A stretch of 64,000 nucleotides of DNA. Source: Escherichia coli 042. GTDB lineage: Bacteria > Pseudomonadota > Gammaproteobacteria > Enterobacterales > Enterobacteriaceae. Below are positions 60,140 to 62,688 of this stretch, in pieces (within the stretch, counting starts at the first letter, position 1; every line of letters starts with the position of its first letter). The notes below the pieces were generated by a model. That model did not search any database and was not told where the DNA came from. It saw only the letters and a list, made by a program, of their open reading frames with translations. The stretch lies in assembly GCF_000027125.1 (NCBI RefSeq), contig NC_017627.1. The stretch is one strand, 5' to 3'. The translations under genes were made by a program, and so were the position numbers.

Positions 60140-61378
60140 TGAACCGCCCCGGGTTTCCTGGAGAGTGTTTTATCTGTGAACTCAGGCTGCCAGATCATTG
60201 TTTCCGATGGAAGCATAATAAGCTTTTTCTGCTTCTGCCGGAGGAGTATGGCCCAGCCTTTCCAGCAATCGTCGATTGTTATACCAGTCCACCCACGTGA
60301 GTGTGGCCAGTTCTACTTCTGCACGGTTTTTCCAGCTCTTACGGTGTATTACCTCCGCTTTGTAAAGACCATTGATGCTCTCCGCCATCGCGTTGTCATA
60401 CGAGTCGCCTGTACTTCCTGTTGATGCCAGTAATCCGGCTTCCTTAAGCCGCTGTGTGTAGGCCAGCGATACATACTGAGAACCTTTATCACTGTGATGG
60501 ACCGTGCCGGACGGTCGACGGGCCCATAACGCCTGCTCCAGTGCATCCAGCACGAATGTCGTTTCCATGGACGATGAGACCCGCCACCCCACGATGTATC
60601 CGGCAAACACATCAATGATGAACGCCACATAGACGAAGCCCTGCCATGTGCTGACGTAAGTAAAATCAGCCACCCACAGCTGGTCAGGTCGTTCTGCCAC
60701 GAACTGACGGTTTACGCGGTCGCCTGCGGCAACGGCTTTCCGGCTGATGGTCGTACGGACCTTTTTACCCCGGAGAACACCGGCAAGTCCCATAACCGCC
60801 ATGAGACGTGCCACAGTGCATCTGGCCACTCTGATACCTTCCCGTAACAACTGACGCCAGACTTTACGCACACCGTATACCTTGTGATTTTCATCGTATA
60901 CGCGCTGTATCTCTTTCTTCAGCCAGTTATCGCGCTGCGCACGGGCACTGCGTTTATCCGGATGATGTCGCTGTTGCTGACAGTGGTAATACGTTGACGG
61001 GGCAATATGCAGTTCGCTGCATAGCGGTCCGACCCCGTACTGCTCACGCAGCTTATCCAGCAGTGGCATCATTTTTTCCAGAGGCGGTCGAACTCCGCCT
61101 TCGCAAAATAAGCGGAAGCCTGGCGAAGAATATCGTTACTGCGGCGCAGTTCACGATTTTCACGTTCCAGCTCTTTCAGACGCTGACGTTCAGCGCTGGT
61201 GAGCCCACCATCACCGCCCCCGGTATCCCGCTCATGCTGGCGAACCCAGACACGCAGAGTCTCCGGCGTACAGCCAATCTTTGGGGCAATGGAACAAATT
61301 GCCGCCCACTGTGAGTCATATTCATCCTGACTTTCCAGAACCATACGAATCGCCCGCTGACGGACTTCGGGGGAAAAA
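60140..61378 (-). mobile_element. IS629 (IS3 family), copy 1, lacking about 70 bp of the orfA-proximal end
   Basis: Right terminus tgaaccgccccgggtttcctggagagtg at 60140; intact orfB 60182-61072; orfA start replaced by the terminus of copy 2. Confidence 0.85.
60182..61072 (-). CDS. IS629 OrfB transposase (DDE), copy 1
   Basis: 296 aa [31 protein letters not shown]... Confidence 0.9.
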
Positions 61379-61420
61379 TGAACCGCCCCGGGTTTCCTGG
61401 AGAGTGTTTTATCTGTGAAC

Positions 61421-62311
61421 TCAGGCTGCCAGATCATCGTTTCCGATGGAAGCATAATAAGCTTTTTCTGCTTCTGCCGGAGGAGTATGGCCCAGCCTTC
61501 CCAGCAATCGTCGATTGTTATACCAGTCCACCCACGTTAGTGTGGCCAGTTCCACTTCTGCACGGTTTTTCCAGCTCTTACGGTGTATTACCTCCGCTTT
61601 GTAAAGACCATTGATGCTCTCAGCCATCGCGTTGTCATACGAGTCGCCTGTACTTCCTGTTGATGCCAGTAATCCGGCTTCCTTAAGCCGCTGTGTGTAG
61701 GCCAGCGATACATACTGAGAACCTTTATCACTGTGATGGACCGTGCCGGACGGTCGACGGGCCCATAACGCCTGCTCCAGTGCATCCAGCACGAATGTCG
61801 TTTCCATGGACGATGAGACCCGCCACCCCACGATGTATCCGGCAAACACATCAATGATGAACGCCACATAGACGAAGCCCTGCCATGTGCTGACGTAAGT
61901 AAAATCAGCCACCCACAGCTGGTCAGGTCGTTCTGCCACGAACTGACGGTTTACGCGGTCGCCTGCGGCAACGGCTTTCCGGCTGATGGTCGTACGGACC
62001 TTTTTACCCCGGAGAACACCGGCAAGTCCCATAACCGCCATGAGACGTGCCACAGTGCATCTGGCCACTCTGATACCTTCCCGTAACAACTGACGCCAGA
62101 CTTTACGCACACCGTATACCTTGTGATTTTCATCGTATACGCGCTGTATCTCTTTCTTCAGCCAGTCATCGCGCTGCGCACGGGCACTGCGTTTATCCGG
62201 ATGATGTCGCTGTTGCTGACAGTGGTAATACGTTGACGGGGCAATATGCAGTTCGCTGCATAGCGGTCCGACCCCGTACTGCTCACGCAGCTTATCCAGC
62301 AGTGGCATCAT
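61421..62311 (-). CDS. IS629 OrfB transposase, copy 2
   Basis: 296 aa, 3 aa differences from copy 1. Confidence 0.9.
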
Positions 62312-62634
62312 TTTTTCCAGAGACGGTCGAACTCCACCTTCGCAAAATAAGCGGAAGCCTGGCGAAGGATATCGTTACTGCGGCGCAGTTCACGATTTTC
62401 ACGTTCCAGCTCTTTCAGACGCTGACGTTCAGCGGTGGTGAGCCCACCATCACCGCCCCCGGTATCCCGCTCATGCTGGCGAACCCAGACACGCAGAGTC
62501 TCCGGCGTACAGCCAATCTTTGGAGCAATGGAACAAATTGTCGCCCATTGTGAGTCATATTCGCTCTGACTTTCCAGAACCATACGGACTGCCCGTTGAC
62601 GGACTTCGGGGGAAAAACGAGTATTTTTAGTCAT
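62308..62634 (-). CDS. IS629 OrfA
   Basis: 108 aa [23 protein letters not shown]... helix-turn-helix / leucine zipper. Confidence 0.9.
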
Positions 62635-62688
62635 CCTGTTTACCTCTTTCTCAGGGAGTTTAGTCTCCAGGATTCCCGGGGCGGTTCA

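Follow-up and report, generated by a model that had tools for sequence, protein, structure and literature searches.

The window, by which we mean the whole 64,000-nt stretch of DNA analysed here, carries close to its right-hand end two IS629 copies lying between inverted copies of one sequence. To their left is an IncFII (RepFIIA-type) replication module in the order repA1, CopA, copB: the replication initiator gene repA1 (57971-58840, minus strand; a 289-aa ORF scoring 579 bits against NCBIfam TIGR03474 incFII_RepA and 619 bits against PRK13750), the CopA antisense RNA gene (58913-59002, plus strand; found with Rfam RF00042 at 97.8 bits, where the gathering score is 60) and the replication regulator gene copB, or repA2 (59128-59385, minus strand; 85 aa; NCBIfam PRK13702, 133 bits). 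The tap gene was not located in the window, being annotated between copB and repA1 only in relatives. The module is followed by a 633-bp 5' fragment of the IS256-family element IS1414 (59507-60139, plus strand; NCBIfam transpos_IS256, 165 bits), recognised by comparison with the intact IS1414 of NC_017724.1, with its 5' terminus set by the end of a 211-bp repeat at 162-372. The transposase ORF of this fragment (59579-60142) is cut at codon 187 and borrows its stop, TGA, from the tip of IS629.

Beyond the IS629 pair the same features return in inverse order and orientation: a 646-bp IS1414 5' fragment (62689-63334, minus strand), copB' (63456-63713, plus strand, from the ORF list) and CopA' (63839-63928, minus strand, an Rfam-type match). 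Indeed, the flanks are reverse complements of one another, 58841-60139 (left arm, plus strand: CopA RNA, copB and the IS1414 fragment) being 100% complementary to 62702-64000 (right arm, minus strand) over the 1299 nt visible before the window ends and clips the right arm; the repA1' of the right module would fall past base 64000, as it does in the plasmid CP091411.1 discussed below. The initial annotation had taken the flanks for the two sides of one interrupted IS256-like element, and this was wrong: they are inverted copies of the same side, with no IS1414 3' part. It was right that the two junctions differ by 13 bp, the right-hand fragment being longer by 62689-62701, which reads TCGTATTGATGCC. 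Since the flanks are inverted copies of one sequence, the IS629 pair is not a plain insertion but the hinge of a head-to-head (inverted) duplication of the IncFII replication-control module, comprising the IS1414 fragment, copB, CopA RNA and then repA1.

Copy 2 of IS629 (61379-62688, minus strand) is a complete element of 1310 bp that starts with TG and ends with CA, as had been proposed; it comprises IRR (61379-61403), orfB (61421-62311), the ALIL frameshift pseudoknot (62237-62353), orfA (62308-62634) and IRL (62664-62688), and its 25-bp terminal inverted repeats match at 23 of 25 positions. All the parts needed for movement are present. Copy 1 (60140-61378, minus strand, 1239 bp) retains an intact IRR (60140-60164), an intact orfB (60182-61072) and ALIL (60998-61114), and lacks IRL. 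The shortfall of about 70 bp previously noted at its orfA end, where copy 2 begins, is exactly 71 bp and takes in the 25-bp IRL, a leader of 29 nt and 17 nt from the start of orfA; the gene has indeed lost its own start, with codons 1-6 gone and the frame resuming at Phe7. With just one end, copy 1 is unable to move alone.

Both copies are IS3-family elements of the IS629/IS1203 group. They share with this group the length of 1310 bp (copy 2), imperfect 25-bp TG...CA repeats, ALIL, a DDE transposase, and overlapping reading frames, a 108-aa orfA and a 296-aa orfB that overlap at the A-run GGAAAAAATGATG, with a -1 frameshift signal. ALIL (RF01497) is recognised in each copy, at 111.6 and 120.2 bits, the higher score being that of copy 1, and both OrfB proteins match NF033516 transpos_IS3 at 315 bits as DDE (rve) transposases, OrfA matching the N-terminal part of that profile. 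Compared with the chromosomal copies of EDL933 (annotated as 'IS3-like element IS1203 family'), copy 1 has 38-39 and copy 2 has 44-45 differences over 1239 nt, or about 96.5-97% identity, which puts the two alleles 38-45 nt away from the O157 type. This comparison is with EDL933, whereas the ISfinder convention sets its threshold, a nucleotide identity of 95% or more, against the named reference element. Where they depart from the group is in the missing IRL end of copy 1 and in the absence of a 3-bp target duplication round either copy. Neither copy, nor the pair taken together, has such a duplication: the triplet to the left of copy 1 is CTG, those to the left and right of copy 2 are AAA and TCG, and no two of them agree. 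Such an absence is to be expected after rearrangement and is no argument against the identification as IS629.

The two copies meet at 61378-61379, where nt 1239 of copy 1 is joined directly to the terminal TG of the copy 2 IRR, the sequence reading ...CTTCGGGGGAAAAA up to the joint and TGAACCGCCCCGGG from it. The head-to-tail arrangement, with copy 1 ending exactly at the terminus of copy 2, had been described with exact coordinates and holds. Across the joint runs a fusion ORF (61069-61455, minus strand) of 128 aa from the ATG at 61455, or 122 aa from that at 61437, which leads from the 3' end of copy 2 through its IRR into copy 1 orfA from Phe7, and which keeps the conserved OrfA region (residues 30-118 match IS3 profile positions 1-86). 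The truncated orfA of copy 1 could be expressed only through transcripts and translation running in from copy 2 (read-through), its product then having an altered N-terminus; a simple consensus scan of 60000-62800 gave no sigma-70-like site on either strand, and hence no junction promoter was detected. The 122-aa form has been called as a gene in an independent metagenome, and no record was found of the exact 128-aa form. By eye, the target inside copy 1 resembles an IR at only 6 of 14 positions, and this was not accepted as a sign of end-targeted insertion. With the flank seen in CP091411.1 as precursor, the only one modelled, the joint shows no microhomology. A joint exactly at the IS tip, with neither target duplication nor microhomology under that precursor, points to a one-ended joint made by transposase; the base-exact joining of the copy 2 IRR tip to copy 1 nt 1239 is inferred to be the signature of strand transfer by transposase, in which one IS end entered a target that was by chance another IS629.

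Could the tandem be the product of assembly alone? Repeats, inverted ones included, are a well-known source of mis-assembly, and a mis-joined repeat or a fold-back chimera would give both a false tandem and a false palindrome; moreover, the window arms are 100% identical and the right arm can be seen only as far as the window end. Nonetheless, all three junctions recur, each in at least one independent assembly, and the break falls exactly at an IS terminus. The tandem junction itself, with the same allele combination, is found in the metagenome assembly ENA ERZ27255834, contig k141_1252 (L016), with copy-1-type single-nucleotide polymorphisms (SNPs) on one side of the junction and copy-2-type on the other. 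In PLSDB and the complete RefSeq E. coli genomes it was not found as contiguous DNA, every match being in two separate pieces, and no match came from scanning metagenome collections and species-representative genomes for its exact pattern. A false duplication would yield identical copies, and those seen here, which align without gaps, differ at 20 positions arranged in clusters (98.4% identity). An artefact is accordingly extremely improbable.

These 20 mismatches make the copies different alleles, which rules against duplication in situ as well as against duplication during assembly. Copy 1 as a whole is a single mismatch from a copy in NZ_CP025842.1, and this allele is widespread, being found in other E. 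coli genomes; the best full-length match to copy 2 stands at 99.5%, and its exact 295-aa OrfB occurs on 19 contigs, with varied gene neighbourhoods in the 10 listed. One rival origin is an in-situ tandem duplication, in which one element would have formed an (IS)2 dimer, like the IS3, IS30 and IS911 intermediates, whose reactive junction later decayed. The layout is reminiscent of the dimers of IS911, IS2, IS3, IS150 and IS30, with two copies in direct orientation and the IRR of one at the boundary; tandem dimers are known IS3-family intermediates, and they trigger deletions, inversions and replicon fusions (PMC9333248). Here, however, the copies are non-identical, with one of them matching a different and widespread allele throughout, and the defining IRR-IRL junction is missing: the copy 2 IRR abuts copy 1 nt 72 (counted from the IRL end), the abutted IRL and 46 further bases having been lost, and the joint has no promoter-like site. 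As a dimer the pair is at most a dead remnant, not an active one, and we regard this origin as very improbable.

The right-hand junction helps to place the two copies in time. The IRL/TCGTATTGATGCC junction recurs in CP091411.1 and in at least 11 other contigs, detected through a 198-aa junction ORF, each showing a single IS at that place. In one of these, the isolate draft L032, the window's left-hand backbone (eit-parE-repA1-copB) runs unbroken into the IRL junction, which suggests that a form exists with one replication module and with copy 2 but no copy 1. As the copy 2 IRL/IS1414 junction is common to relatives, copy 2 is the older, complete resident. Junction ORF variants of 122, 187, 192 and 198 aa were found in other assemblies, and no record of the window's exact 200-aa right-junction ORF. 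Exact-pattern scans for the right junction returned 0 matches, and its sole full-length match in a single piece in RefSeq E. coli is L041, a variant 15 bp shorter.

This bears on the earlier suggestion of nested or successive insertion plus deletion, of which separate acquisitions stand, considering that the copies are different alleles, whilst the simple nesting of copy 2 in copy 1 is not supported, given the greater age of the copy 2 IRL/IS1414 junction. True nesting would have copy 2 inserted into copy 1 at nt 1239, with a duplicated 71-74 bp later lost by slippage or recombination between the adjacent IRL-end repeats. It would account for the precise IRR joint and for copy 1 having lost just its IRL-proximal part, and O157 genomes do have IS629 copies near or inside other IS629 copies. 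It predicts, however, that the right flank is the original one of copy 1 and that copy 2 is the newcomer, and yet that junction is common to single-IS relatives, in which the IS629 there has copy-2-type SNP blocks (nt 789-1218 in L035, L036, L039 and L040; nt 789-1187 in L001). It also leaves unexplained why copy 1 should lie between inverted copies of the same DNA, and we consider it improbable.

The closest comparison is p542093_2 (CP091411.1), from an enteroaggregative E. coli from the UK, which shares the right junction (IRL followed by TCGTATTGATGCC), the inverted IS1414-copB-tap-repA1 arms, a 1-bp deletion in IS1414 and an F-type backbone collinear with the window. Across PLSDB and the complete RefSeq E. 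coli genomes, the best matches to the window backbone are at about 97%. The arms of CP091411.1 are 2295 bp long, 99.5% identical (100% in the window), and end about 100 bp past the repA1 stop. Unlike the window it has one IS629, which is split by a group II intron at nt 515/516 and whose SNPs are copy-1-type in the left part and copy-2-type in the middle, and its left flank (...ATACGAAG, then IRR) runs exactly 15 bp further than that of the window. The window-type left junction was found independently in L011 and L014, and its site has been used in both orientations, with an IRL-type junction 2 bp away in L041; neither it nor the CP091411.1-type left junction has a contiguous match in RefSeq E. 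coli. In this region IS1414 serves as a hot spot, entered by IS629 in both orientations. None of the fetched loci has IS629 at these sites beside an IS1414 3' part with a matching duplication, and L051 has one unrelated, normal-looking junction close by. NZ_CP042885.1, NZ_OP242267.1, pEB4, p948, pGF4-A and pF11-3, in which IS629 is near IS1414, were rejected as counterparts, the contexts all being different.

With CP091411.1 in view, a local origin in two steps can be weighed. A same-orientation, copy-1-type IS629 would have inserted into an existing palindrome, 15 bp from the copy 2 IRR, giving an IRL-18 bp-IRR quasi tandem-dimer intermediate (IRL, CTGGGCATCAATACGAAG, IRR TGAACC); a deletion of about 89 bp, assisted by transposase or by IEE, would then have started exactly at the copy 2 IRR tip and removed the spacer plus 71 bp of copy 1. 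In CP091411.1 there is indeed a palindrome that has one IS629 only, and the plasmid's left flank is longer than that of the window by precisely 15 bp; the use of the window-type left-junction site both ways speaks for this route too, as do described IS629/IEE deletions that end exactly at an IS629 end (bioRxiv 10.1101/2023.06.07.543989) and the deletions triggered by reactive IR-IR junctions of tandem copies (PMC9333248). The alleles sit less well with it. Right-junction-linked contigs have copy-2-type SNP blocks and CP091411.1-type left-junction contigs have copy-1-type SNPs, the latter all being copy-1-type at IS nt 60-244 (L001, L021 and L030, with L025 differing at nt 175 only), where copy 2 of the window and of L016 has the other allele. 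The ancestor required, a pure copy-2 IS at that left junction, is thus unobserved, and would call for later gene conversion; IS629 SNP haplotypes are nevertheless mosaic across samples, some of them from short-read or metagenome assemblies, which makes them a weak historical marker. In addition, no intermediate with full copy 1 and spacer was found in PLSDB, RefSeq E. coli or the fetched loci. Overall, we deem the two-step route possible, though on the unlikely side.

The account that we favour, tentatively and just short of calling it probable, is a one-ended joint made by transposase, most likely through the fusion of two copies of the module. Copy 1 would have sat, in opposite orientation, in the same IS1414 hot spot of a second module copy, on a sister plasmid or a co-resident related plasmid; the IRR end of copy 2 would have attacked copy 1, fusing the two modules head to head, and the fusion would have been trimmed later to arms of about 2.2-2.3 kb. 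When IS3-family elements transpose by copy-out-paste-in, one cleaved end is transferred first, and 'sloppy' transfer to sites besides the opposite end has been put forward as what gives rise to the rearrangements associated with IS629 (bioRxiv 10.1101/2023.06.07.543989); across copy-out-paste-in families, IS junction reactions yield deletions, inversions and cointegrates (PMC9333248). An origin of the palindrome in which one end attacked the other strand of its own molecule was rejected: the left arm of the relative has uninterrupted target across the insertion site, and so must come from a second copy.

Fusion fits the pattern of an IS-mediated cointegrate, in which the IS keeps its former flank at one end and gains new target DNA at the other, with no matching duplication: copy 2 is flanked at its IRL by the IS1414 junction common to relatives and at its IRR by internal copy 1 sequence, and the joined partners are inverted. 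The locus differs from a cointegrate in that the target is itself an IS629, that a second IS copy and the reciprocal junction were not found, and that, judged from the relative, only about 2.2-2.3 kb of the second partner seems to be left. Neither the 64-kb window, nor CP091411.1 over its full length, nor any fetched locus contains the reciprocal junction (IRL, then the missing 71 bp of copy 1, CGAGTATTTTTAGTCATCC...GGCGGTTCA); the source replicon extends past the window, and a later deletion of this junction is possible. A further parallel is with deletions made by IS629 transposase and IEE (Kusumoto et al. 2011, reviewed in bioRxiv 10.1101/2023.06.07.543989), in which the end of the rearrangement likewise falls exactly at the IS629 terminus, and which have been explained by strand transfer of one cleaved end elsewhere than to the opposite end (bioRxiv 10.1101/2023.06.07.543989); unlike those deletions, the event here is read from sequence alone. 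Against fusion count the missing reciprocal junction, the mosaic SNP haplotypes and a right arm visible only as far as the window end, and two more points: the left junction of the relative is 15 bp off that of the window, which requires a second independent copy-1-type insertion or a small deletion, and a local deletion at an IS end would equally leave a one-ended joint.

Regardless of how the pair arose, it had rightly been called a strong recombination substrate, consisting of a 1239-bp direct repeat that includes a 544-bp perfect block. Homologous recombination should collapse it to one hybrid IS629, the form seen in CP091411.1 and in many gut-metagenome contigs. Indeed, the single-IS629 relatives are hybrid in their SNPs, copy-1-type on the left and copy-2-type on the right, and look like the product of such a collapse. 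We could speculate further that the tandem still shows the first joint made when IS629 drove the head-to-head fusion of two IncFII replication modules, that it documents in nature a one-ended IS3-family strand transfer into a second IS copy, that the commoner palindrome with a single hybrid IS629 (CP091411.1 and many contigs from human-gut metagenomes) was derived from it by recombination, and that the inverted copA/copB alter copy-number control or incompatibility, although as a whole this scenario is rather doubtful.

The exact ends, the 13-bp difference between the junctions, the inverted arms and the missing target-site duplications cannot have come about by chance: the pair is a real and inherited, but ordinary, scar of transposon-driven rearrangement in an F-type plasmid. 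This is ordinary IS biology, and it leaves the current understanding of transposition unchanged. For annotation, the region is to be described as the hinge of an inverted replication-control duplication, and not as an IS256-like gene interrupted by two IS629 copies; the two copB/CopA copies affect replicon typing, and short-read contigs break at these junctions. The instability of the locus is predictable, as recombination between the IS copies would leave one hybrid IS629, and recombination between the arms would flip the hinge. A stretch of about 120 bp of IS1414 emerges as a recurrent landing site for IS629, and the structure, recurring in isolates and gut metagenomes, provides a natural example in which the end of one IS3-family element meets the inside of another copy at a precise joint.

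The two IS629 elements of this E. coli 042 stretch, arranged head to tail at 60140-61378 (copy 1) and 61379-62688 (copy 2), form a 2.5-kb hinge about which a replication-control module of the plasmid is duplicated head to head. On either side lie two arms, 58841-60139 and 62702-64000, which are reverse complements of each other and make up a 1299-nt inverted repeat of 100% identity, cut off only by the window end. Each arm contains a 5' fragment of IS1414 (IS256 family), the IncFII regulator gene copB and a gene for CopA antisense RNA (RF00042, scoring 97.8 bits in either arm), with repA1 (57971-58840) continuing the left arm. 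The IS1414 fragment takes up the first 633 bp on the left and the first 646 bp on the right, where it is 13 bp longer (TCGTATTGATGCC), just as the initial annotation had described. That annotation took the flanks for two halves of one interrupted IS256-like gene and overlooked the inverted duplication; since they are mutually reverse-complementary, and the 3' part of IS1414 is absent beside the pair, the pair is instead a hinge. A 1-bp IS1414 deletion (CAATATCGA to CAATACGA; 60130-60139 and 62689-62701), only 3 bp from the IS629 junction, is common to both arms and to those of the plasmid CP091411.1, and is not found in the intact IS1414 copies of two other loci (L003 and L004).

Elsewhere the window is an F-type conjugative plasmid, carrying parM, eit genes and a leading region besides traI, traD and finO. 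Next to finO (1184-1744, minus strand), at 162-372, the first 211 bp of IS1414 occur a third time, with 100% identity to both arms. In a MEGAHIT contig of 38.8 kb (L031), sequence continues from finO across this repeat and into a junction of IS1414 with the IRL of IS629 (IRL and IRR being the orfA-end and orfB-end terminal inverted repeats); the arrangement is a genuine alternative, or else a chimera via the 211-bp repeat. At 8060-8389, ~25 or more tandem 9-bp units fall within the 3' end of the traD ORF (7835-10186, minus strand), and the leading region holds three direct repeats of ~450 bp, 84-99% identical (36483-36937, 42053-42507 and 45426-45878), and a further repeat pair (42394-42693 and 45765-46064).

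Both IS3-family copies lie on the minus strand, and re-reading the sequence bears out the coordinates and description first given for them. Copy 2 is complete at 1310 bp, with 25-bp terminal inverted repeats matching at 23/25 positions (ends TGAACCGCC... and ...GGCGGTTCA), orfA at 62308-62634 (108 aa) and orfB at 61421-62311 (296 aa), both on the minus strand. The 1239 bp of copy 1 align to copy 2 with 0 gaps and 20 mismatches, and its end ...GGGGGAAAAA abuts the terminal TG of copy 2. Its loss at the orfA end, first put at about 70 bp, is exactly 71 bp and takes in the left inverted repeat, a 29-nt leader and 17 nt at the start of orfA. orfB is intact in both copies, the ALIL frameshift pseudoknot (Rfam RF01497) is kept in both at 120 and 112 bits, and both protein sets match the IS3-family transposase model. 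Across the joint, a minus-strand fusion ORF starts at ATG 61455 or 61437, within the end of copy 2 orfB, crosses the copy 2 right inverted repeat and enters copy 1 orfA in frame at Phe7, with the conserved OrfA region wholly present. No target duplication was found for copy 1, copy 2 or the pair as a unit, the flanks reading CTG, AAA and TCG. An active tandem dimer is disfavoured, as the pair lacks the IRR-IRL junction and a simple consensus scan showed no promoter-like site.

Best backbone matches to the window reach ~97%, and every junction of its structure was found again in other assemblies. The tandem junction recurs as an exact 122-aa fusion ORF on an ENA metagenome contig (ERZ27255834 k141_1252, hereafter L016), with 3 differences from the window over 924 bp spanning the junction; on each side its SNPs are of the type of the corresponding copy. 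The left junction (...CCTGGCACTG|TGAACC) is present in L011 and in the metagenome contig L014, the latter showing 764 bp of complete identity to the window; several isolate draft contigs stop at this point or 1 bp to either side. The right junction (GGTTCA|TCGTATTGATGCC) occurs in CP091411.1 and in 11 contigs located via a 198-aa junction ORF. That the tandem arose as an assembly artefact is very unlikely, as an assembler would invent neither the 20 differing sites between the copies nor a break exactly at the IS terminus. In the EDL933 chromosome, two IS629 copies lie in direct orientation ~440 bp apart, and in other O157:H7 chromosomes and plasmids the halves of the tandem-junction query match 400-700 bp apart (match positions only); the truncated junction of the window is in none of these matches.

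Among relatives, CP091411.1 (p542093_2) is the closest: a 93-kb plasmid of an enteroaggregative E. coli from the UK, its backbone largely collinear with the window. It has the same palindrome and right junction, its arms covering 2295 bp at 99.5% identity and ending ~100 bp beyond the repA1 stop. Unlike the window, it carries a single IS629 between the arms, and its left flank is 15 bp longer (...GGCATCAATACGAAG|TGAACC), because of which its arms differ by only 2 bp at the element. In its left arm the IS1414 target sequence is uninterrupted across the point of the right-hand junction, and this arm therefore comes from a second module copy without that insertion. The same type of left junction is found on 18 further contigs, mostly from human-gut metagenomes. 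The single IS629 is interrupted at IS nt 515/516 by a 2272-bp group II intron (ltrA; 9670-11941 of CP091411.1), which occupies exactly this position in L016, L021, L034 and L041, in L016 within the truncated copy 1 of the shared tandem; both window copies, in contrast, are intron-free. An IS100 also lies inside the intron region of L041.

The two copies have distinct affinities. A copy in NZ_CP025842.1 differs from copy 1 by 1 mismatch, and several other genomes have near-identical ones (99.8-99.9%); the best full-length match of copy 2, in complete E. coli genomes, is 99.5%, and both are ~96.5-97% identical to EDL933 copies annotated as IS1203 family. The exact copy 2 OrfB protein occurs on 19 contigs, with varied neighbourhoods among the 10 listed, consistent with an active lineage. 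The 20 differences between the copies fall into three blocks (nt 60-244, 789-1187 and 1209-1218), the first two separated by a 544-bp identical stretch, and the differences between the copies disfavour an in-situ duplication of one IS629. The single IS of CP091411.1 is copy-1-type, copy-2-type and copy-1-type across the three blocks. Three contigs with its left junction (L021, L030 and L025) are copy-1-type at nt 60-244, L025 differing at nt 175 only, and their coverage ends short of the other blocks; four right-junction contigs (L035, L036, L039 and L040) are copy-2-type at nt 789-1187 and 1209-1218, with nt 60-244 outside their coverage. By these shared blocks, copy 2 is the counterpart of the IS joined to the right junction in relatives. 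More mosaics appear in other samples (L031 and L034), several of these assemblies are short-read, and we use the blocks as supporting evidence only.

How, then, did the joint form? Across plasmids and metagenomes, IS629-type ends abut IS1414 at seven distinct positions within ~120 bp (around IS1414 nt 620-740). If the last IS1414 base of the shared right junction is called X, IRL ends lie at X-15 (L041), about X-5 (L051, against the 3' side of IS1414) and X (the window right junction and relatives), and IRR ends at X-13 (window), X+2 (CP091411.1 type), X+20 (L004) and about X+95 (L005). In the pairs X/X+2 and X-15/X-13, the IRL-type junction falls exactly 2 bp short of the IRR-type. Just this offset is expected of two ordinary insertions that face opposite ways, each with a 3-bp duplication, and are displaced by 2 bp from each other, which makes it plausible that elements inserted here independently in both orientations. 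The tandem joint itself falls exactly at the terminal TG of copy 2, whose ends are in unrelated contexts, and shows no duplication, nor any microhomology if the precursor flank was that of CP091411.1. When IS3-family elements transpose by copy-out-paste-in, one cleaved 3' end is transferred first, and we infer that the joint is a transposase-type event in which a single IS end was transferred into a target. To account for IS629-associated rearrangements, it has been proposed that the end can go to sites other than the opposite one (bioRxiv 10.1101/2023.06.07.543989), and IS end junctions in copy-out-paste-in families lead to deletions, inversions and replicon fusions (PMC9333248).

We tentatively prefer a fusion of two module copies, which draws only on junctions actually observed. 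Copy 2 would have resided in the IS1414 of one module copy and copy 1 in a second, at a nearby site in opposite orientation; the copy 2 IRR end would then have attacked copy 1 at nt 1239 and produced a head-to-head fusion of the modules, from which the greater part of the duplicated partner would later have disappeared. An isolate draft contig (L032, GCA_018291055.1), 99.6-99.7% identical to the eit-parE-repA1 backbone of the window apart from an additional 1 kb at 53882/53883, runs unbroken from eit-parE-repA1-copB into an IRL-type, not IRR-type, IS629 junction, and suggests a single-module form carrying the IRL junction of copy 2; it may be such a form, or a flipped isomer. Alternatively, in a palindrome that already had one IS, copy 1 would have inserted in the same orientation at a distance of 15 bp, and 89 bp would then have been deleted from the copy 2 tip onwards. 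We consider this history less likely, as its ancestor must have had copy-2-type SNPs next to a left junction of the CP091411.1 type, a combination seen in 0/4 informative contigs. Both histories fit the joint; neither the window nor CP091411.1 nor any fetched locus contains the reciprocal fusion junction. The initial annotation had proposed nested or successive insertion: successive acquisitions of IS629 fit well, whilst nesting of copy 2 within copy 1 is disfavoured, since the right junction and linked SNP blocks predate the tandem.

As to present behaviour, copy 2, with both ends and intact genes, should be mobile, and copy 1, with one end only, could move only jointly with it, as a 2549-bp unit from the copy 1 IRR to the copy 2 IRL; the OrfA' of copy 1 could be produced only by reading through from copy 2. 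Recombination across the 1239-bp direct repeat should leave one hybrid IS629, and the SNPs of the single-IS relatives are patterned as a crossover in nt 245-788 would predict, in line with the strong recombination substrate first suggested, although the 15-bp difference in left flank means that they are not simple descendants of the exact form in the window. Recombination between the identical arms would invert the hinge. The plasmid has two copB/CopA sets in opposite orientation, and the IS629 pair is a new instance of plasmid rearrangement by IS elements, which is well known, rather than a new kind of system.
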